From assembly GCF_013122565.1 (NCBI RefSeq), contig NZ_CP053258.1: a stretch of DNA of 64,000 nucleotides. One strand, given 5' to 3'. The notes beneath the pieces were generated by a model. It was not told where the DNA came from and ran no database searches. It saw nothing but the letters and a program-made list of their open reading frames with translations. Shown here in pieces: positions 3,294-57,996 of the stretch. This DNA is from Escherichia coli. Its GTDB lineage: Bacteria > Pseudomonadota > Gammaproteobacteria > Enterobacterales > Enterobacteriaceae. The position numbers and the translations under genes are program-made. Numbering within the stretch: the first letter of the stretch is position 1; each line of letters opens with the position of its first letter.

Positions 3294-3401
3294 TCAAGAA
3301 AGGCACCTGAGGCTGAAACGGTTAATGGCGAGATAATTTGCGGAAAGTGCAGATGATGAAAAGAAAAATGCCGGATGACACAAAGGTCATCCGGCATGAC
3401 A

Positions 3402-6372: not shown

Positions 6373-8304
6373 TCAAATGGGGCGGATACTTTCTTCATCC
6401 AGCTCCGCATCGAAAAACCGACGCAGGGTCTGAATATTATTATCCGCAATAATGGACTCGCGCGCCTGCGCAAGTTTTTCTTCGTATATCGCCTGACGCC
6501 ACTCCAGCGGCGTACGCACCGCGGGATTATCATCTTCAACGATAGTCAGTTCAACCGTTGAACCTTTTAACATGCTCAACGCTTCAGCCAGTTTTTGCTG
6601 TGCACCGCGGTTGTTCAAATGCCGCTGAGAGGAGCGCAAATGCAGACATACTGCGTTATCACTCTCCTCTTTCCAGGCATTTAACGCCACCTGTTCGACC
6701 AGTTTTGGTAGCGAAAGTTGACTCACCTGAGCCGCCCACGCGTCGCGCTCAATGGCTTCTGCCGCCAGCTTCGCCGCCAGTTCCGGCGTTTTTTCATGTT
6801 CCAGCGCTTTTTTCAGCGCCTTCGGCGTGGCGACCACTTCTTTTTGCTGCATCACTGGAGTGGTCGCCTTCCAGCGATACGCTTCTTTTTTAGCTGGCGC
6901 TTTTTCCAGCGCCGATGGCACCGGACGCGCCTGAACGCGATCTGTGACCGAAGCCAGTCTTTCCAGCGCAGCGTTATTCACCGGCCGCGCGCGGGTAGCG
7001 GCTGCCGGTTCACTCTTTTTTGCTTTGGTTGCTCCCTGCACGCGCTGCAACTGCTGGCGCGCCGCCAGCACCTGGCTGGTGGTTTCCGGGAGCGGTACAG
7101 TCGGTGCCTGCTGCGGCGCTGATTGCGGTTGCGGCGGCACCTGGGTTGGGGTCATTACTGCCGTTGGCGCGACGGGTGCAAAGGACTGTCGTGGCACTTC
7201 TGGCTCAGGCAGCGGCATACGCGGATGGAATGCCAGCGCGCGCAGCAGCGTCATCTCAACGCCCATGCGGCGGTCCGGCGCATACGGTAATTCTTTGCGA
7301 CCAATCAACAGCGTCTGATAGTAAAGCTGAATATCCGTCGGCGGTATGGTGCGCGCCAGTTCACGCATCCGCAGCTCGATGGCGGCCATGTCGTTGCCAA
7401 GTGCAGCAGGCGAAAGTTGTACCATCGCAATACGATGCAACAGACCGAGCATTTCCACCAGCAACGCTTCCCACTCGATACCACGGGCAGCGGCTTCATT
7501 AATCAGCGCCATTACGCGCTCGCCGTTGGCCTCGACCATCGCTTCAACCAGCGACAGCGCCTGATCGTCGTCAAGCGTACCCAGCATCGTACTGACCGCC
7601 TGGGTTGAAACCTGGCCGTCACCGCTGGCAATCGCCTGGTCGGTCAGACTTAAGGCATCTCGCAGGCTGCCTTCAGCGGCGCGTGCCAGCAATTGCAGCG
7701 CCCGCGGCTCGTGAGCGATATGTTCTTCGTTGAGGATGTGCTCAAGCTGATGGCGAATTTGCTCGACATCCAGCGCCTTGAGATGAAATTGCAGACAGCG
7801 TGACAAAATCGTCACCGGCAATTTCTGTGGATCGGTCGTCGCCAGCAGAAACTTAACGTGCTCCGGCGGCTCTTCAAGGGTTTTTAACAGTGCGTTGAAG
7901 CTGTGGCGCGACAGCATATGCACTTCGTCGATGAGATAAACTTTGAAACGACCACGCGCCGGAGCGTACTGGACGTTATCCAGCAGGTCGCGGGTATCTT
8001 CAACTTTGGTGCGCGAGGCGGCGTCGATTTCAATCAGATCGACAAAGCGCCCCTGCTCGATTTCACGACAGTTATCGCACACGCCGCACGGCGTCGCGGT
8101 AATGCCGGTTTCGCAGTTTAGCCCCTTCGCCAGCAGTCGGGCGATAGAGGTTTTTCCGACGCCACGGGTACCGGAAAAAAGATAAGCATGATGAATACGC
8201 CCTAACGACAAGCCGTTCGCCAGTGCGGTCAGCACATGTTCCTGGCCGACGACGTCAGCAAAGGTTTGTGGGCGCCATTTTCGGGCTAAGACCTGATAAC
8301 TCAT
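6373..8304 (-). CDS. dnaX: DNA polymerase III tau subunit (gamma produced by -1 frameshift)
   Basis: 643-aa ORF MSYQVLARKWRPQTFADVVGQEHVLTALANGL... with Walker A GTRGVGKTS. Confidence 0.97.
   Translation of the reverse strand: MSYQVLARKWRPQTFADVVGQEHVLTALANGLSLGRIHHAYLFSGTRGVGKTSIARLLAKGLNCETGITATPCGVCDNCREIEQGRFVDLIEIDAASRTKVEDTRDLLDNVQYAPARGRFKVYLIDEVHMLSRHSFNALLKTLEEPPEHVKFLLATTDPQKLPVTILSRCLQFHLKALDVEQIRHQLEHILNEEHIAHEPRALQLLARAAEGSLRDALSLTDQAIASGDGQVSTQAVSTMLGTLDDDQALSLVEAMVEANGERVMALINEAAARGIEWEALLVEMLGLLHRIAMVQLSPAALGNDMAAIELRMRELARTIPPTDIQLYYQTLLIGRKELPYAPDRRMGVEMTLLRALAFHPRMPLPEPEVPRQSFAPVAPTAVMTPTQVPPQPQSAPQQAPTVPLPETTSQVLAARQQLQRVQGATKAKKSEPAAATRARPVNNAALERLASVTDRVQARPVPSALEKAPAKKEAYRWKATTPVMQQKEVVATPKALKKALEHEKTPELAAKLAAEAIERDAWAAQVSQLSLPKLVEQVALNAWKEESDNAVCLHLRSSQRHLNNRGAQQKLAEALSMLKGSTVELTIVEDDNPAVRTPLEWRQAIYEEKLAQARESIIADNNIQTLRRFFDAELDEESIRPI
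7010..7021 (-). promoter_or_regulatory. dnaX: dnaX programmed -1 ribosomal frameshift site (slippery A AAA AAG, then -1 frame stop)
   Basis: Minus strand reads GCA AAA AAG AGT GAA encoding ...KAKKSE...; heptamer A AAA AAG at 7015-7021; shifting -1 gives AAA AAA GAG TGA, so the gamma product ends at TGA 7010-7012. Confidence 0.9.
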
Positions 8305-10124: not shown

Positions 10125-10286
10125 ATGTCACTGGAAAATGCCCCCGACGATGTCAAACTGGCCGTCGATTTAATTGTGCTGCTGGAAGAAAATCAGATCC
10201 CAGCCCGCACCGTGCTGCGCGCGCTGGATATTGTAAAACGCGATTATGAAAAGAAATTAACGCGCGATGATGAGGCGGAAAAGTGA
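10125..10286 (+). CDS. ybaM: small DUF2496 protein YbaM (53 aa)
   Basis: Read manually: ATG 10125 ... TGA 10284-10286 encodes [53 protein letters not shown]; below the ORF-track size cut-off; 13 nt after priC. Confidence 0.85.
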
Positions 10287-10339
10287 GAAATAAATGGGGT
10301 GGCTAAATGTCCCCTAAGGTTGCGGGCAAACGCAAAACT

Positions 10340-10437
10340 GCCTGATGCGCTACGCTTATCAGGCCTACACCGCTCCTGCAATATATTGAATTCTTGCGGT
10401 TTCGTAGGCCGGATAAGGCGGTCACGCCGCATCCGGC
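10340..10437. repeat. REP/BIME element (two inverted REP units) between ybaM and mscK
   Basis: gcctgatgcgctacgcttatcaggcctac and inverted partner gtaggccggataaggcggtcacgccgcatccggc are typical E. coli REP sequences. Confidence 0.8.
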
Positions 10438-10497
10438 ATGAACAACGCGCACTTTGTTAGCAATCTCGGGGCAACTAAATGTCGCCCCCTTTTGTTT

Positions 10498-13400
10498 TTA
10501 CCCTACCGCTGGCGTCGGGTCGTCGCCTTTGTAGTCGCGTTTGACTTCCGTCACCTCATCGCCCTTCTCGTTGTGTAGATGCACTTCAAGCTGGTTAAAG
10601 GCAATGTTGATGTCGTTTTCACGGCACAGCTGATCGATAGTACGGTTCAGCTCATCGACAGTACGGCTACGGTCACGCAGTTCACGCACATACAGACGCA
10701 GCTCATGATCCAACGTGCTGGCACCAAATGCCGTAAAGAAGACCTCCGGCATTGGTTCGTGCATCACCCTTGGGTGCTCAGTCGCCGCCTTCAGTAACAC
10801 TTTACGCACTTTTTCCAGATCGGAGCCATAGGCCACGCCGAGACGGATCACCAGACGCGTAGTCGTGTCAGTCAACGACCAGTTGATCAGACGCTCGGTA
10901 ACAAACGCTTTGTTCGGGATGATCACTTCTTTTCGATCGAAATCGGTAATCGTTGTCGCACGAATACGGATCTTACTTACCGTCCCCGAGAAGCTACCAA
11001 TGGTTACCGTATCGCCAATACGCACCGGACGTTCGAACAGGATGATCAAACCAGAGACAAAGTTACCGAAGATCTCCTGTAAGCCAAAACCAAGACCTAC
11101 GGATAATGCTGCCGCCAGCCACTGGAGTTTATCCCACGAGACGCCCAGCGATCCGAACACCGTCATCGCACCAACGGCAATAATGATGTAGTTAAGGATG
11201 GTAGTAATGGCATACGACGCGCCCTGACGCATATTCAGTCGCGAGAGCACCAGCACTTCCAGCAAACCAGGCAGGTTGCGAATCAACGCCCAGGCCACCA
11301 TTGAGGCGATAATCGCAAACAACAGACTGCCCATGGTGACGTTTTTCACCACCGCAGCGCCAGCTTCAGTACCGTTGTAATGCCAGAGCGTAATGCTGTC
11401 GAGATAGCTGAACACGGTGATCAAATCGGACCAAATTGCCCAGAACATGACACCGAACAGCGCAAACATCAGCAACATGGTAATACGCAGCGTCTGCTGG
11501 TTAACTTGCTCCAGTGCAATGGTGGGTTCTTCCGGCGGTTCGGCACCTTCTGCGCCCTCTTTCACCAGATTCTGCCGACGCGCCAGCGCACGACGCCAGG
11601 CGATACGCCGCGCCGCTACGCTTAAGCCGCGCAATACCGTCTGGTACAGCAGGTTCCAGATGATCACCAAATAAACGGTTTCAATCCAACGCCCGGAGAG
11701 GCGCAGCGTGGTGTAGAAGTACCCCGTGGCGGTCAGCACCATCAACGCAATCGGGATAATCGACAGTACGGTAATGGTGACCAGTCGCATGGTGTGCGAC
11801 TCTTTATCACGCCAGCTTTCACGGCACATCGGCCACACCAGGAAGGCAATCAGCAGCAGGTTGAAGAAAATCATCGCCTGCCCCAGCACATCATCCATCA
11901 GATGCAGCGGGGAAAGTTCTGCCACCACAGACCAGAAATGGATGGGCAGCAATGCGAGACTGATGCGGACAATTTGCCGACGCCAGTGGCTGGTCTGCTG
12001 CTCCGGCATGCCGAAGTGACGCACGGCAACGCCGTTTTTCTCCAGTACCTTCCAGCACAGGCCAAACACCAGCCAGAAAATCGCCAGTTTTTTGCTGAAC
12101 GACCATAGCAATTCGCTGATGTTGAGCTGCATGGTCAACAGAATCAGGCCAACCGCGAGAATAATCAGGCACACCGGCAGCGCGCGGATCAGGTCGATAA
12201 GGATCGCTTTTGGTGTGTTGAGCTGGCTGTCGTTACGCAGGGAACCCACAGCGGAAGCCAGTTTCTGTTGATACGCTTTCAGCCAGCCCAGACGCCAGTG
12301 GATCAGTCCGGCAATCAACAGCAGCGGCAAACCAGCGAGGAAAGCGATAAAAACGGCGGGCCAGGCTTTTTCCCAGTTCACCGTGATTTTCATCGACTTA
12401 AATTCATCTTTCAGGCTTTGCGGGAACGCTTTGATCCAGTCCCAGTCCATTGGACGGTTACTGTTCACCCAAAAGATTTGCTGAGTCAGGATGGATTTCA
12501 GGTTTTTCGATACGCTCATTAACTGCTGCTGGTTGATTTGCAAGTTAATGGCCATCATCAATTGGTTACCCAACTGTTTGTTAAGCTGATCCAGCAATTC
12601 GCGACGCATATCAACCACTTGCAATAATGCATCGTGAACTTCGCTGTTGACTTCGTTGGTGTGACCTTCTTCCAGTTTGTTGACGAATGCATCGCTCTGG
12701 AAGAGTGCATCACGCTGCTGGTTAACTTCAAACTGTTCGAGACGCAAATCCGCGATGCGGTTGGTCATGTTTTCCAGTTCATCCGCCGAGGGCAGCGTTT
12801 GTTGTTGCTGGTAAAGGATACGAGACAACAGCAGGCTGCCCTTCAGGACGGCAATCTGCTCTTTAATATTGCGTTCCGATTGCAGCGCCCGCTCCAGCCA
12901 GTTTTTGACTTTAATGTTTTGCTGCATCAACTGATTACCGTTTTCAGTCGCGGTAATCAGACGCTGACTTAACTGCTGGTTAATTTCCAGTTCCTGCTTC
13001 ACCAGCGGATTAGCCTGAATACGCGCGGCTTCATCCGGGGAGATGGCTTCCTGCGCCGTTTTTTCAGTTAAAGTCAGGCGCTTGCTATTTACCGCTTCTT
13101 GCAACAGTTGTAACTGATGCTCCAGACGGGCGCTGTTCGCCGTCACGTAATCACGCTGCTTTTGCAAGGTATCCTGTAAGACAGTGTTCCCTTCCAGGCT
13201 TTTACGCTGCTGGTCAATCTCCGCATTCAGCAACGCCTGCTGGGCCTGCATTAACACTTTCTGGCTGGGACGTAAGGCCGTCTCGCCGACATCAGTCCCA
13301 TCCAGACGACTGCGAATTTGTTGCAGCTGCTGCGAAGCGTTATACATCGCATTTTGCACGCGTTCGGGCTGCGTCTGTAACGAAACCAACTGGCTGTTAT

Positions 13401-13860
13401 AAGACGCCAGATCGTTTTGTGCGTTCTGCAAATCGTCCAGCGCCTGGGCAACGCGAGTTTCCAGCTGGCGCAACGAAAGCGTACTCAGAATTTTGCGCGT
13501 TTCTTCGTCGTTATCGACATCGCTAAGTGCTGTTAACGCTGTGGTCGCCTGACGCATTTTTTCCGGCGCTTCAGCGACTTTTTGCCGTAGCTGAACTGTC
13601 TCTTCTTTTATGCGATCGATTTTATCAAGGGTGGCTAATGTATCTGTCAGATCCTGCTGCACCAGTTTGTCCTGAGCAGAAAGATCTTTTTGTTTATTCA
13701 GTGAGTCAAGTTGCGCCTGCAGGTCCGCTTTTGTCGGTAAATCACCATTCGATGACGCCCGCGCAAACGCCGTGTTCTGGCATAACAAGACAAAAACAAA
13801 AGCAATAAATGCTGAAAAAACAAAATGCCGTGATCGTTTGTAATACTGGAACATAGTCAT
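10498..13860 (-). CDS. mscK: potassium-dependent mechanosensitive channel MscK (KefA)
   Basis: 1120-aa ORF with signal sequence, long coiled-coil periplasmic region, multiple TM helices and C-terminal MscS-like domain. Confidence 0.96.
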   Translation of the reverse strand: MTMFQYYKRSRHFVFSAFIAFVFVLLCQNTAFARASSNGDLPTKADLQAQLDSLNKQKDLSAQDKLVQQDLTDTLATLDKIDRIKEETVQLRQKVAEAPEKMRQATTALTALSDVDNDEETRKILSTLSLRQLETRVAQALDDLQNAQNDLASYNSQLVSLQTQPERVQNAMYNASQQLQQIRSRLDGTDVGETALRPSQKVLMQAQQALLNAEIDQQRKSLEGNTVLQDTLQKQRDYVTANSARLEHQLQLLQEAVNSKRLTLTEKTAQEAISPDEAARIQANPLVKQELEINQQLSQRLITATENGNQLMQQNIKVKNWLERALQSERNIKEQIAVLKGSLLLSRILYQQQQTLPSADELENMTNRIADLRLEQFEVNQQRDALFQSDAFVNKLEEGHTNEVNSEVHDALLQVVDMRRELLDQLNKQLGNQLMMAINLQINQQQLMSVSKNLKSILTQQIFWVNSNRPMDWDWIKAFPQSLKDEFKSMKITVNWEKAWPAVFIAFLAGLPLLLIAGLIHWRLGWLKAYQQKLASAVGSLRNDSQLNTPKAILIDLIRALPVCLIILAVGLILLTMQLNISELLWSFSKKLAIFWLVFGLCWKVLEKNGVAVRHFGMPEQQTSHWRRQIVRISLALLPIHFWSVVAELSPLHLMDDVLGQAMIFFNLLLIAFLVWPMCRESWRDKESHTMRLVTITVLSIIPIALMVLTATGYFYTTLRLSGRWIETVYLVIIWNLLYQTVLRGLSVAARRIAWRRALARRQNLVKEGAEGAEPPEEPTIALEQVNQQTLRITMLLMFALFGVMFWAIWSDLITVFSYLDSITLWHYNGTEAGAAVVKNVTMGSLLFAIIASMVAWALIRNLPGLLEVLVLSRLNMRQGASYAITTILNYIIIAVGAMTVFGSLGVSWDKLQWLAAALSVGLGFGLQEIFGNFVSGLIILFERPVRIGDTVTIGSFSGTVSKIRIRATTITDFDRKEVIIPNKAFVTERLINWSLTDTTTRLVIRLGVAYGSDLEKVRKVLLKAATEHPRVMHEPMPEVFFTAFGASTLDHELRLYVRELRDRSRTVDELNRTIDQLCRENDINIAFNQLEVHLHNEKGDEVTEVKRDYKGDDPTPAVG

Positions 13861-13987
13861 GATGAATGAAGGTTTCTGAACCTGAAGAACGACCTGAAAA
13901 AGTCAAACCGCAAGAATATCACGACGCAATGAACCAGAATAGCAACGACGAAAATGTCCAGGAAAAATCCTGGAGTCAGATTCAGGG

Positions 13988-14635
13988 TTATTCGTTAGTG
14001 GCAGGATTACGAAGCGTGGGGCACAGGAGATACATCTCCAGTAAGATGGCGACGTAATCGCGGGCTTCTTTTTTAAGATCAAAAGATTGCGGGGCAAAGA
14101 GCCAGTTTTCCATCAGGCCGGAAATATAGCCGCGCATAATAATCGCTGCCCGACGCGTCATTAAATCCGCAGGCAACATTTTCGCTTCAATACAATGTTT
14201 TAACGTTTGTTCTATACGGTCATAACTTTCCAGACAGAGATTACGTTGTGCCTGTTGCACAACAGCCATTTCTCCGACAAATTCGCATTTGTGGAATATA
14301 ATCTCCATCAATAATCGACGCCGTTCTTCTGTCACCGTGGATTCAAGAACATGAATTAATATCTCTCTTAATACTGAGAGTGGATCGCCAGGGAATTTTG
14401 CCTGATACTCAAGCTCTAGTTCACCAATATTGGATTCTGACAGTTCCCAGATCTCACTGAACAAATCCGACTTGTCTTTAAAATGCCAGTAGATTGCACC
14501 GCGCGTAACGCCAGCTGCTTTTGCAATCTCGCCCAGCGAGGTGGATGATACCCCCTGCTGTGAGAAAAGACGTAGAGCCACATCGAGGATGTGTTGGCGC
14601 GTTTCTTGCGCTTCTTGTTTGGTTTTTCGTGCCAT
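13988..14635 (-). CDS. acrR: TetR-family repressor AcrR
   Basis: 215-aa [55 protein letters not shown]...; divergent from acrA. Confidence 0.96.
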
Positions 14636-14663
14636 ATGTTCGTGAATTTACAGGCGTTAGATT

Positions 14664-14687
14664 TACATACATTTGTGAATGTATGTA
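14664..14687. promoter_or_regulatory. AcrR operator: 24-bp palindrome TACATACATTTGTGAATGTATGTA in the acrR-acrA intergenic region
   Basis: Palindrome read directly; corresponds to the known AcrR binding site. Confidence 0.85.
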
Positions 14688-14776
14688 CCATAGCACGACG
14701 ATAATATAAACGCAGCAATGGGTTTATTAACTTTTGACCATTGACCAATTTGAAATCGGACACTCGAGGTTTACAT

Positions 14777-15970
14777 ATGAACAAAAACAGAGGGTTTACG
14801 CCTCTGGCGGTCGTTCTGATGCTCTCAGGCAGCTTAGCCCTAACAGGATGTGACGACAAACAGGCCCAACAAGGTGGCCAGCAGATGCCCGCCGTTGGCG
14901 TAGTAACAGTCAAAACTGAACCTCTGCAGATCACAACCGAGCTTCCGGGTCGCACCAGTGCCTACCGGATCGCAGAAGTTCGTCCTCAAGTTAGCGGGAT
15001 TATCCTGAAGCGTAATTTCAAAGAAGGTAGCGACATCGAAGCAGGTGTCTCTCTCTATCAGATTGATCCTGCGACCTATCAGGCGGCATACGACAGTGCG
15101 AAAGGTGATCTGGCGAAAGCCCAGGCTGCAGCCAATATCGCGCAATTGACGGTGAATCGTTATCAGAAACTGCTCGGTACTCAGTACATTAGTAAGCAAG
15201 AGTACGATCAGGCTCTGGCTGATGCGCAACAGGCGAATGCTGCGGTAACTGCGGCGAAAGCTGCCGTTGAATCTGCGCGGATCAATCTGGCTTACACCAA
15301 AGTCACCTCTCCGATTAGCGGTCGCATTGGTAAGTCGAACGTGACGGAAGGCGCATTGGTACAGAACGGTCAGGCGACTGCGCTGGCAACCGTGCAGCAA
15401 CTTGATCCGATCTACGTTGATGTAACCCAGTCCAGCAACAACTTCCTGCGCCTGAAACAGGAACTGGCGAATGGCACGTTGAAACAAGAAAACGGCAAAG
15501 CCAAAGTGTCGCTGATCACCAGTGATGGTATTAAGTTCCCGCAGGACGGTACGCTGGAATTCTCTGACGTTACCGTTGATCAGACCACTGGGTCTATCAC
15601 CCTACGCGCTATCTTCCCGAACCCGGATCACACTCTGCTGCCGGGTATGTTCGTGCGCGCACGTCTGGAAGAAGGGCTTAATCCAAACGCTATTTTAGTC
15701 CCGCAACAGGGCGTAACCCGTACGCCGCGTGGCGATGCCACCGTACTGGTAGTTGGCGCGGATGACAAAGTGGAAACCCGTCCGATCGTTGCAAGCCAGG
15801 CTATTGGCGATAAGTGGCTGGTGACAGAAGGTCTGAAAGCAGGCGATCGCGTAGTAATAAGTGGGCTGCAGAAAGTGCGTCCTGGTGTCCAGGTAAAAGC
15901 ACAAGAAGTTACCGCTGATAATAACCAGCAAGCCGCAAGCGGTGCTCAGCCTGAACAGTCCAAGTCTTAA
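14777..15970 (+). CDS. acrA: multidrug efflux pump periplasmic adaptor AcrA
   Basis: ORF 14741-15970; internal start gives MNKNRGFTPLAVVLMLSGSLALTGCDDKQ (lipoprotein signal), 397 aa. Confidence 0.96.
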   Translation: MNKNRGFTPLAVVLMLSGSLALTGCDDKQAQQGGQQMPAVGVVTVKTEPLQITTELPGRTSAYRIAEVRPQVSGIILKRNFKEGSDIEAGVSLYQIDPATYQAAYDSAKGDLAKAQAAANIAQLTVNRYQKLLGTQYISKQEYDQALADAQQANAAVTAAKAAVESARINLAYTKVTSPISGRIGKSNVTEGALVQNGQATALATVQQLDPIYVDVTQSSNNFLRLKQELANGTLKQENGKAKVSLITSDGIKFPQDGTLEFSDVTVDQTTGSITLRAIFPNPDHTLLPGMFVRARLEEGLNPNAILVPQQGVTRTPRGDATVLVVGADDKVETRPIVASQAIGDKWLVTEGLKAGDRVVISGLQKVRPGVQVKAQEVTADNNQQAASGAQPEQSKS

Positions 15971-15989
15971 CTTAAACAGGAGCCGTTAA

Positions 15990-19142
<3,153 letters not shown>

Positions 19143-23834: not shown

Positions 23835-23948
23835 GGGTGGGGGCCCTGCCAGCTACATCCCGGCACACGCGTCATCTGCCTTGGCTGCTTCCTTCCGGAC
23901 CTGACCTGGTAAACAGAGTAGCGTTGCGGGAGAACCAACAGAGCCCCC
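23835..23948 (-). ncRNA. ffs: 4.5S RNA (signal recognition particle RNA)
   Basis: Reverse complement of 23835-23948 reads GGGGGCTCTGTTGGTTCTCCCGCAACGCTACTCTGTTTACCAGGTCAGGTCCGGAAGGAAGCAGCCAAGGCAGATGACGCGTGTGCCGGGATGTAGCTGGCAGGGCCCCCACCC (114 nt), the E. coli ffs sequence as I recall it; location between ybaA and atl matches K-12. Confidence 0.93.
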
Positions 23949-35557: not shown

Positions 35558-35584
35558 TGCCGGATGCGGCTTGAGCATCCGGCA
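35558..35584. terminator. 10-bp perfect hairpin (tgccggatgc/gcatccggca) between convergent queC and fadM
   Basis: Inverted repeat read directly in the 51-bp gap; REP-like hairpin likely acting as bidirectional terminator. Confidence 0.6.
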
Positions 35585-41520: not shown

Positions 41521-41603
41521 AGAGCTCTCTCTTAGTTTAATTTCCGCCAGGTAATCAGATGACACGACTGTGCTTCACGCCATCTATTAACATGTACGTC
41601 AGT

Positions 41604-41631
41604 ATATGGGGATGTTTCCCCCACATTCAAC
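41604..41631 (-). promoter_or_regulatory. sigma32 (heat-shock) promoter of lon
   Basis: Minus strand reads GTTGAAT-14 nt-CCCCATATA about 85-110 nt upstream of the lon start. Confidence 0.7.
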
Positions 41632-41655
41632 GCCGAGAATAGAGGAAAAATTAAA

Positions 41656-41679
41656 GGGGAGATAAAATCCCCCCTTTTT
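41656..41679. terminator. hairpin with flanking A/T runs in the clpX-lon intergenic region (clpX terminator; may also end the antisense sRNA SraA)
   Basis: gggga-gataaaa-tcccc followed by ttttt on the plus strand, preceded by an A-rich run; an sRNA (SraA/PsrA3) is reported at this locus in K-12, recalled from memory and not confirmed from sequence. Confidence 0.55.
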
Positions 41680-41707
41680 GGTTAACTAATTGTATGGGAA
41701 TGGTTAA

Positions 41708-56012: not shown

Positions 56013-57377
56013 ATGAACGATTATAAAATGACACCAGGTGAGCGGCGCGCGACCTGGGGTTTAGGAACCGTTTTCTCGTTGCGCATGCTGGGCATGTTTA
56101 TGGTTCTGCCGGTTCTGACCACGTACGGCATGGCTCTGCAAGGTGCCAGCGAAGCATTAATCGGTATTGCCATTGGTATTTATGGTCTGACTCAGGCCGT
56201 TTTTCAGATTCCGTTTGGCCTGCTTTCCGACCGCATTGGTCGCAAACCATTAATTGTCGGTGGGCTGGCGGTGTTTGCCGCCGGTAGCGTTATCGCTGCG
56301 CTTTCTGACTCCATCTGGGGAATTATTCTGGGCCGGGCGCTACAAGGCTCCGGTGCGATTGCCGCTGCCGTTATGGCGCTGCTTTCCGATCTCACGCGCG
56401 AACAAAACCGCACCAAAGCGATGGCGTTTATCGGCGTGAGCTTTGGCATTACCTTCGCCATTGCGATGGTGCTTGGCCCAATCATCACTCACAAACTTGG
56501 GCTGCACGCGCTGTTCTGGATGATCGCTATTCTGGCAACGACCGGCATTGCATTGACCATTTGGGTTGTGCCCAACAGTAGCACTCACGTACTTAATCGT
56601 GAGTCCGGAATGGTGAAAGGCAGTTTCAGTAAAGTACTGGCGGAACCGCGGCTGCTGAAACTCAACTTTGGCATTATGTGTCTGCACATGCTTCTGATGT
56701 CTACGTTTGTTGCCCTGCCCGGACAGCTGGCTGATGCGGGGTTCCCGGCGGCTGAACACTGGAAGGTCTACCTGGCAACGATGCTAATCGCCTTTGGCTC
56801 GGTCGTGCCTTTCATAATCTACGCTGAAGTTAAGCGCAAAATGAAGCAAGTCTTTGTCTTCTGCGTCGGGTTGATCGTGGTTGCGGAAATTGTGTTGTGG
56901 AACGCACAAACGCAGTTCTGGCAACTGGTAGTCGGCGTGCAGCTTTTCTTTGTGGCGTTTAATTTGATGGAAGCCCTTCTGCCCTCACTTATCAGTAAAG
57001 AGTCGCCAGCAGGTTACAAAGGTACGGCGATGGGTGTTTACTCCACCAGCCAGTTTCTTGGCGTGGCGATTGGCGGTTCGCTGGGCGGCTGGATTGACGG
57101 CATGTTTGACGGTCAGGGTGTATTTCTCGCTGGCGCAATGCTGGCCGCAGTGTGGCTGGCAGTCGCCAGTACCATGAAAGAACCGCCGTATGTCAGCAGC
57201 TTACGCATTGAAATCCCTGCGGACATTGCCGCAAACGAAGCGTTAAAAGTACGTTTGCTGGAAACTGAAGGCGTCAAAGAAGTGTTGATTGCAGAAGAAG
57301 AACATTCAGCTTATGTGAAAATCGACAGCAAAGTGACGAATCGCTTTGAGGTTGAACAGGCAATTCGTCAGGCATAA
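56013..57377 (+). CDS. yajR: MFS transporter YajR
   Basis: ORF 56007-57377; ATG at 56013 gives MNDYKMTPGERRATWGLGTVFSLRMLGMFMVLPVLTTYG... (454 aa). Confidence 0.93.
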   Translation: MNDYKMTPGERRATWGLGTVFSLRMLGMFMVLPVLTTYGMALQGASEALIGIAIGIYGLTQAVFQIPFGLLSDRIGRKPLIVGGLAVFAAGSVIAALSDSIWGIILGRALQGSGAIAAAVMALLSDLTREQNRTKAMAFIGVSFGITFAIAMVLGPIITHKLGLHALFWMIAILATTGIALTIWVVPNSSTHVLNRESGMVKGSFSKVLAEPRLLKLNFGIMCLHMLLMSTFVALPGQLADAGFPAAEHWKVYLATMLIAFGSVVPFIIYAEVKRKMKQVFVFCVGLIVVAEIVLWNAQTQFWQLVVGVQLFFVAFNLMEALLPSLISKESPAGYKGTAMGVYSTSQFLGVAIGGSLGGWIDGMFDGQGVFLAGAMLAAVWLAVASTMKEPPYVSSLRIEIPADIAANEALKVRLLETEGVKEVLIAEEEHSAYVKIDSKVTNRFEVEQAIRQA

Positions 57378-57392
57378 AAAACGCGGCGAATT

Positions 57393-57490
57393 GCCTGCTG
57401 CGCTACGCTTACCAGGCCTACAAAGTTCTTGAGTTACAAACCGTTGTAGGCCGAATTAGCTGTTCATGCTGCATTCGGCATGAACAAAAC
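57393..57490. repeat. REP/BIME element between convergent yajR and yajQ
   Basis: gcctgctgcgctacgcttaccaggcctac followed by gtaggccgaatt... and palindromic tgttcatgc...gcatgaaca; typical REP sequence. Confidence 0.75.
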
Positions 57491-57504
57491 GCACATAGTC
57501 GCGA

Positions 57505-57996
57505 TTAATCGCGGAAGTTTTTGAACTGGAACGGCTGGCCGAGATCGCCACCACGTACCATCGCCATGACAGCCTGCAAATCATCACGAGATTTGCCCGT
57601 TACGCGGATTTCATCGCCCTGAATTTGCGCCTGCACTTTCAGTTTGCTGTCTTTGATCATCTTGACGATTTTTTTCTGGGTCGCGCTCTCAATGCCCTGT
57701 TTCAGTTTCGCTTCCACAAACCAGGTTTTACCGCTATGAACGATATTCTCCGGTACATCCAGTGAACTGCCTTCAATGCCGCGCTTCAGCAGCTTGGCAC
57801 GCAAAATATCCAGCAACTGATTGACCTGGAAATCGGACTCGCTCAACACTTTGATGGTTTTGCTGGCGTCGTTCAGCTCAAATGAGGCTTCAACATTACG
57901 GAAGTCAAAACGGGACTCCACTTCGCGGCTCGCGTTATCGACCGCGTTACGTGCTTCCTGAAGATCAACTTCAGAGACAATATCGAAAGATGGCAT
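57505..57996 (-). CDS. yajQ: nucleotide-binding protein YajQ (UPF0234)
   Basis: ORF 57505-58164; internal start at 57994-57996 gives [57 protein letters not shown]... (163 aa). Confidence 0.93.

Follow-up and report, generated by a model that had tools for sequence, protein, structure and literature searches.

Background

The REP palindromes of Escherichia coli are imperfect, 30-40 nt in length, and non-complementary at one point of the stem. They carry a conserved GTAG (or CTAC) tetranucleotide at their foot (PMC3333891). The arrangement closest to the elements considered here is the BIME-1, in which one z1 and one y palindrome are paired in a single copy around a long, conserved L linker, often with an IHF site (PMC3333891, PMC2817692). 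IHF has been assigned to that linker of BIME-1 (PMC3333891, PMC2817692), while preferential cleavage by gyrase has been documented for BIME-2 (PMC6379681). In 3′ untranslated regions, REP hairpins stop 3′-to-5′ exonucleases and define stable 3′ ends (PMC6061677) and, according to work cited in PMC12306157, REPs no more than 15 nt from a stop codon can reduce translation. The mode of movement of REP and BIME elements is described as unknown (PMC3333891). REPs are said to lack the signatures of MITEs (PMC3184786), and the REP-related Y1 transposases make no flanking repeats (PMC3333891, PMC2817692); Ton-Hoang et al. (PMC3333891) do not use the word “duplication”.

Two other systems bear comparison. 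The REPINs of Pseudomonas, likewise inverted REP doublets, are themselves what replicates and are linked to a Y1 (RAYT) transposase present in single copy, but they belong to another sequence family and host than BIME-1, and neither an IHF-binding linker nor a hairpin duplication is mentioned for them (PMC2817692, PMC5581495). The Correia elements of Neisseria are likewise approximately 150 nt long and intergenic; they end in inverted repeats and contain an IHF site (PMC3184786).

Here we examine two gene junctions in a 64,000-nucleotide stretch of an E. coli chromosome (contig NZ_CP053258.1; hereafter the window), namely ybaM-mscK (site 1) and yajR-yajQ (site 2). The element at site 1 is almost certainly an intact BIME-1 (RIP/RIB) and that at site 2 an old, decaying one. 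Both are ordinary, long-known E. coli intergenic palindromic repeats, already present in K-12, and their listing in an earlier note on this DNA has bookkeeping value only, in that it guards against mistaking known repeats for new structure. The only part that might be new is a duplication of the hairpin flanking the BIME-1 unit, which rests on 10 loci and three pairs of filled and empty alleles.

Locus and gene context

The window is E. coli-like chromosome that runs opposite to K-12, where it corresponds to approximately 435-499 kb. Its top identity to 5426 complete RefSeq E. coli genomes was 98.8% over 8 kb (window positions 11000-19000), so that it comes from a lineage, or a Shigella, missing from that collection. 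At site 1, ybaM (now rsmS; 10125-10286, + strand) and mscK (10498-13860, - strand, stop codon 10498-10500) converge on a spacer of 211 nt; at site 2, yajR (56007-57377, + strand, stop codon 57375-57377) and yajQ (- strand, stop codon 57505-57507) converge on a spacer of 127 nt. The gene names and convergent orientation given in the earlier note were correct when checked against gene coordinates and strands, as was its description of both junctions as REP/BIME elements. Each holds a Z-linker-Y inverted pair, the scan for the REP consensus that had been named beforehand as a check found matches at both, and comparison with K-12 located the same elements at the same junctions. The note had also set the sites apart from CRISPR-like structure, and each indeed consists of just two inverted palindromes, without regularly spaced direct repeats and unique spacers. 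It had listed the two sites together, but they are not equivalent, site 1 being an intact BIME-1 and site 2 a decayed relic. Neither site gave an Rfam match at the gathering threshold.

Anatomy of the element at site 1

The REP units that had been placed at 10340-10437 are real, but the element is not confined to those 98 nt: it extends to approximately 153 nt (10315-10467), with conserved outer motifs. On the + strand it begins with a left outer motif, TAAGGTTGCGGGCAAACGCAAAACT (10315-10339), which holds the left arm of an imperfect terminal inverted repeat. This is followed by a short Z-type REP (z1 in BIME nomenclature; 10340-10368, + strand) ending in CTAC at its 3′ end (10365-10368), an L linker of 35 nt (10369-10403), and a Y-type REP (10404-10437, - strand) whose + strand reading begins with GTAG (10404-10407). 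The right outer motif, ATGAACAACGCGCACTTTGTTAGCAATCTC (10438-10467, + strand), is conserved in other copies and holds the right arm of the terminal inverted repeat. The ends of the unit thus form a 14-nt imperfect inverted repeat, with arms GGTTGCGGGCAAA and TTTGTTAGCAATC in the window and a cleaner match in other copies. Megablast matches to other loci ran from approximately 10327 to 10466.

The Z REP has no mismatches to the short Z consensus GCCTGATGCGCTACGCTTATCAGGCCTAC and the Y REP has a single mismatch to the Y consensus, and shuffled windows yielded no such matches for either. Both consensus strings were borne out by independently retrieved copies. The two REPs are inverted, so that their CTAC and GTAG feet face the linker, and fold at -13.2 (Z) and -22.3 kcal/mol (Y), with z of approximately -4.3; the hairpin of the Y REP contains an internal 2 × 2 mismatch. 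Within the linker, the - strand at 10379-10391 reads ATTCAATATATTG, one mismatch from the IHF consensus WATCAANNNNTTR, a match that is weak alone given a background of around one per kilobase at no more than one mismatch. The linker core CCTGCAATATATTGAATT is identical at ybaM-mscK in six Escherichia lineages, and over its REP part the element does not differ from the copy that K-12 carries at this junction.

Membership of the BIME-1 family

The linker core CCTGCAATATATTGAATT also served as the probe with which nine other loci were retrieved by exact match. Scanning of metagenome contigs for this 18-mer returned 120 loci; about 15 of 29 metagenome contexts were dropped as chance 18-mer matches in unrelated DNA, and the final sample comprised 10 distinct BIME-1 contexts drawn from the metagenome loci, the window and Escherichia loci. 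The nine others have the same Z(29)-35 nt-Y(34) arrangement and outer motifs as site 1, giving a family layout of a left motif (~25 nt), Z (29 nt), linker (35 nt), Y (34 nt) and right motif (~30 nt). Exceptions to this layout are yajR-yajQ, with its 24-nt linker, and the three copies fbaA-mscS, L097 and L208, each of which lacks one outer motif. A short Z accompanied the L linker at all 10 sampled loci. The left outer motif is common to the entD-fepA, metE-ysgA, chbG-katE and fruA-psuK copies, among others, and across loci the family ends form the inverted repeat AGAYTGMTGACAAA (left) ... TTTGTCARCAATCT (right). A 140-nt sequence of site 1 recurs elsewhere at ~89% identity, for example at entD-fepA. 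In an E. coli genome, the site 1 sequence gives matches at a median of 19 places, as against a median of one for a 311-nt query across site 2, which occurs whole only once.

Both sites display the consensus match, the GTAG/CTAC foot, the imperfect palindromes and the extragenic position of REPs, and each has one Y and one z1 in inverse orientation as a single unit. Site 1 is no different from described BIME-1/RIP/RIB elements, with its inverted Y and short Z, a long conserved linker containing an IHF-like site at one mismatch, a single unit and a position at gene 3′ ends. Site 2 differs from them in its linker of 24 nt, from which the IHF-like core is deleted, and in its Y REP.

It is scarcely conceivable that the palindromes are ordinary, locus-specific terminators that resemble REPs by chance. 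They do lie at the 3′ ends of genes that converge, and true terminator-like hairpins adjoin the unit at site 1 (10296-10314 and 10468-10499), but neither of its REPs is followed by a T-run, consensus matches of 29 and 34 nt have a chance expectation of zero, and the recurrence of the 140-nt sequence at other loci rules out a locus-specific origin. Nor are the sites at all likely to be of the BIME-2 type, that is, strong gyrase sites built of tandem Y and long Z2 REPs, an assignment that we rate as very improbable. The Y REP and the GTAG/CTAC feet are common to BIME-2 and the sites described here, and gyrase prefers Y-type REPs within BIME-2 (PMC6379681). However, the long Z2, the short variable linkers and the tandem copies of BIME-2 are absent: each site has a single REP pair with a short Z, the L linker is long (35 nt at site 1), and published gyrase enrichment is documented for BIME-2 only. 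The description “gyrase/IHF sites” in the earlier note was too generic; of the two sites, only site 1 has a match to the IHF consensus.

Duplication of the flanking hairpin

Two direct copies of a hairpin, at 10296-10314 and 10468-10486 (+ strand), lie exactly against the two ends of the site 1 unit. The left copy of this local terminator hairpin, GGGGTGGCTAAATGTCCCC (-9.9 kcal/mol on the + strand, -5.9 on the - strand), still has, upstream, the A-rich tract that belonged to the ancestral bidirectional terminator, but no T-run after it. The right copy (-11.8 to -14 kcal/mol on the + strand) is followed by CTTTTGTTTTT. It has the T-run, with which it spans 10468-10499 and which overlaps the stop codon of mscK. 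In the empty allele, one homologous hairpin carries both tracts. A simple terminator scan missed the flanking hairpins because a loop of more than 8 nt with a 5-pair stem exceeds its loop limit.

Duplication of the flanking hairpin was found at five of the 10 independent BIME-1 loci (ybaM-mscK, metE-ysgA, fbaA-mscS, fruA-psuK and chbG-katE). The duplicated hairpins are locus-specific, abut the unit and match in their loops as well as in their stems; matched left and right flanks scored 9-18, whereas mismatched pairs averaged 6.8 (sd 1.4). Their folding energies range from approximately -6 to -25 kcal/mol depending on the strand, and all copies but one fall below -9 kcal/mol on at least one strand. 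For three loci (ybaM-mscK, metE-ysgA and fbaA-mscS), filled and empty alleles could be paired, and the empty site contained exactly one copy of the hairpin. The metE-ysgA and fbaA-mscS pairs are both clean. The duplication spans ~19-21 nt at metE-ysgA and ~35 nt, including the T-run, at fbaA-mscS, where the left junction lies in short homology with the left motif of the element.

The two remaining loci were considered as filled/empty pairs and rejected. The “empty” allele of chbG-katE contains an unrelated hairpin, and at fruA-psuK a decayed relic lies between the same two hairpins in K-12. In the K-12-like fruA-psuK spacer (955-1377 of the region compared) the relic is heavily decayed, its REPs being eroded, and the same hairpins bracket an intact BIME-1 in 1194 other genomes.

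The duplication is possibly the footprint of BIME-1 insertion. We tentatively propose, as a reading with rather less than an even chance of being correct, that a ~153-nt inverted-repeat unit spreads, lands at the foot of a terminator hairpin and duplicates the whole hairpin over a variable length of 19-35 nt. The presence of the hairpin on both sides indicates that the insertion, or a copying event, doubled 19-35 nt of the target, whole hairpin included. IS200/IS605-type Y1 transposases work by duplication-free strand transfer, which is usually assumed for REPs. The footprint would not fit such transfer and would point to a hairpin- or replication-dependent copying step.

Two other accounts of the flanking repeats were weighed against this proposal. 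The ~153-nt unit could be a classical MITE, moved by a DDE-type transposase that acts on the 14-nt ends, with the flanking repeats as its target-site duplication and the REPs as cargo. Inverted repeats do form the ends across loci, direct repeats abut those ends at five of 10 loci, and empty sites hold one copy. DDE transposases, however, produce short duplications of fixed length, whereas those seen here are long and variable (~19-21 nt at two loci and ~35 nt at a third) and always include a whole hairpin. The fbaA-mscS copy also lacks the left inverted-repeat arm, and its junction lies in short homology with the target. A MITE in this sense is, on balance, unlikely. Correia elements, which are comparable in size and ends, have a fixed TA duplication and no REP palindromes. 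Alternatively, the hairpins may be no insertion footprints at all, if BIME-1 survives best beside terminators and neighbouring terminators simply look alike. Transcription units are known to have REPs and BIMEs at their 3′ ends, and the hairpin stems are GC-rich and of low complexity. Against it, the repeats are locus-specific and match in loops and stems, matched flanks outscore mismatched ones by the margin given above, and in three allele pairs exactly one copy stands at the same position in the empty site. We regard differential survival as quite improbable, more so than the MITE.

If the duplication is indeed left by insertion, the bidirectional terminator would be split, with one copy on each side of the BIME-1, so that two one-sided copies replace what was one bidirectional terminator. 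The convergent transcripts would in that case both read across the element, and 3′-end formation of both genes may change. The same flanking repeats would allow later precise loss of the unit, which would explain precise “excisions” of whole BIME-1s. A reproducible target duplication of a whole hairpin, seen alongside empty alleles that match it, would concretely limit the ways in which REP and BIME elements could move, and the footprint model is open to a genome-wide check in existing genomes.

No description of flanking repeats of BIME-1 was found in a search of the more recent papers and reviews. In 1997, Bachellier et al. reportedly described “excisions of a whole BIME-1” as well as insertions of BoxC, and of IS1397 in BIMEs. 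The types of polymorphism seen here were thus already known, and the flanking repeats may also have been noted there.

Decay of the element at site 2

The Z-type REP of site 2 (57393-57421, + strand; CTAC at 57418-57421) begins 15 nt past the yajR stop codon. It has two mismatches to the consensus and a weakened hairpin (-9.5 kcal/mol, z -1.35). The linker that follows is shortened to 24 nt (57422-57445) by loss of the 11 nt that carry the IHF-like core, a deletion that is evident against site 1 and the entD-fepA copy and is common to all five E. coli lineages aligned; no match to the IHF consensus was found in site 2 at one mismatch or fewer. The degenerate Y REP (57446-57479, - strand; GTAG at 57446-57449) differs from the consensus at 7 of 34 positions when read directly, and its remnant still folds at -15 kcal/mol in the window but hardly at all elsewhere: K-12, O157 and the remaining lineages in the comparison gave only -5.5 to -9 kcal/mol. 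Beyond it, alignments place a remnant of the right outer motif, ATGAACAAAACGCAC..., at 57480-57509 (+ strand), overlapping the yajQ stop codon. The REP units had been reported at 57393-57490 and are real; the pair, however, ends at 57479, and the claimed end lies 11 nt inside the motif that flanks it, apparently through reuse of the 98-nt span of site 1.

Over the 161 nt aligned to K-12 (57360-57520), there were 11 differences, all of them between 57412 and 57478, and the element is far more variable between strains than its flanks. Judged by its sequence, site 2 is a single-copy, decaying BIME-1 relic. As the IHF-like core is missing and both REPs have lost most of their pairing, IHF binding is unlikely, and the site would provide at most a weak RNA structure near the yajR stop codon.

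For the 5′ arm of the site 2 Z REP, the end of the yajR coding sequence is a better pairing partner. Around the yajR stop codon, 57357-57367 and 57387-57397 form an 11-bp perfect inverted repeat (CAGGCAATTCG / CGAATTGCCTG; -21.5 kcal/mol, z -4.4), the right arm of which, along with at least 8 nt of the left arm (57360-57397), is identical in K-12. Because the 5′ arm of the Z REP is part of this inverted repeat, the two structures, the repeat and the weakened REP hairpin, are in competition.

Distribution, age and alleles

Of 5426 complete E. coli genomes, 3880 carry the element at site 1 and 5284 carry that at site 2. The term “core-genome”, applied to both in the earlier note, therefore suits site 2 but not site 1. 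Most of the remaining genomes carry an empty allele at site 1, a 38-nt spacer with a single bidirectional terminator hairpin that is strong on both strands (-22 kcal/mol on each). Any function of the site 1 element is dispensable, since ~28% of E. coli genomes do without it and show no visible effect.

The site 1 element is old. A BIME-1 occupies the same ybaM-mscK junction in E. albertii, E. whittamii and two further Escherichia lineages, and was absent from this junction in Citrobacter, Salmonella, Klebsiella and the others compared. The site 1 unit (10326-10466) is 97.9% identical to that of E. albertii, as against 85.6-94.9% for the adjacent coding DNA, and this high identity suggests constraint on the element or homogenisation among its copies. 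Identity of the unit to that of Escherichia sp. E1V33 is 98.6%. The mscK and priC coding DNA flanking orthologous units is 85.6-95.8% identical to the window, and the Y REP of E. whittamii at ybaM-mscK is decayed (82.9%). In Citrobacter, Salmonella and Klebsiella, an extra ORF starting MERL(P/S)TTPHDAVFRQMLTQKE... lies past ybaM, where Escherichia has the BIME-1 or terminator; this ORF is a putative gene of the YhgA/Rpn type.

Insertion sequences have also targeted both sites. At site 1 in MARGA_3 and at site 2 in WP2-W18-CRE-03, the Z REP holds an insertion of IS621 (IS110 family) at its ATCAGGC-CT-AC tail. The junctions at both sites read ...TTATCAGGCCT / IS621 / CTAC..., with the CT dinucleotide on both sides, and in the site 2 region of WP2-W18-CRE-03 they lie at 200-230 and 1490-1510 of the region compared. 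These insertions agree with the REP target specificity of IS621 (PMC1525189).

A further allele was seen in the divergent E. coli strain E69 (CP089930; 2669-2900 of the region compared), where a GC-rich, BoxC-like palindromic repeat replaces the REP pair at ybaM-mscK while the outer motifs (GATTGCTGACAAAC ... CTTTGTCAGCAATC) are still present, as are the two flanking hairpins. It was considered as a third common allele and rejected, being present in 0 of 5426 complete RefSeq E. coli genomes.

Likely function of the site 1 element

At the level of DNA, the site 1 linker would bind IHF between two cruciform-prone palindromes. At the level of RNA, both convergent transcripts would run into the REP hairpins, which may block exonucleases and provide stable 3′ ends. 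The hairpin and T-run at 10468-10499 are likely the intrinsic terminator of ybaM/rsmS, and the ybaM transcript probably terminates there, just past the unit. As this is the only + strand hairpin with a T-run and it lies beyond the unit, the ybaM transcript should carry the whole BIME-1. No good intrinsic terminator for mscK is present past the unit. The distal hairpin is weak on the - strand (-5.9 kcal/mol), so the mscK 3′ end probably results from trimming to a hairpin, or from Rho. By analogy with other REPs, those of site 1 are also putative substrates of the REP-associated Y1 transposase (TnpA-REP).

Other structured elements in the window

A scan of the whole window found no further canonical REP with a GTAG tail, and two REP-like hairpins without one, at 3371-3397 and 35559-35584. 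The former is an intrinsic terminator with arms that resemble a Y REP (GCCGGATG / CATCCGGC); it lies directly past the stop codon of a 624-aa ORF (- strand, HtpG-like), with a T-run after it on that strand. The latter is a REP-like palindrome, TGCCGGATGCGGCTTGAGCATCCGGCA, with Y-type arms and no GTAG tail, located between convergent ORFs of 231 aa and 132 aa, which by size and position are probably queC and fadM. Immediately after it lies ACAACAAAACG, which resembles the BIME-1 right motif. This palindrome may be a third REP relic, absent from the earlier note. Elsewhere in the window, matches to Rfam at the gathering threshold comprised the dnaX frameshift element (6976-7040), SRP RNA (ffs; 23844-23940) and the sraA sRNA (41592-41687), all of which are expected for this region of K-12.
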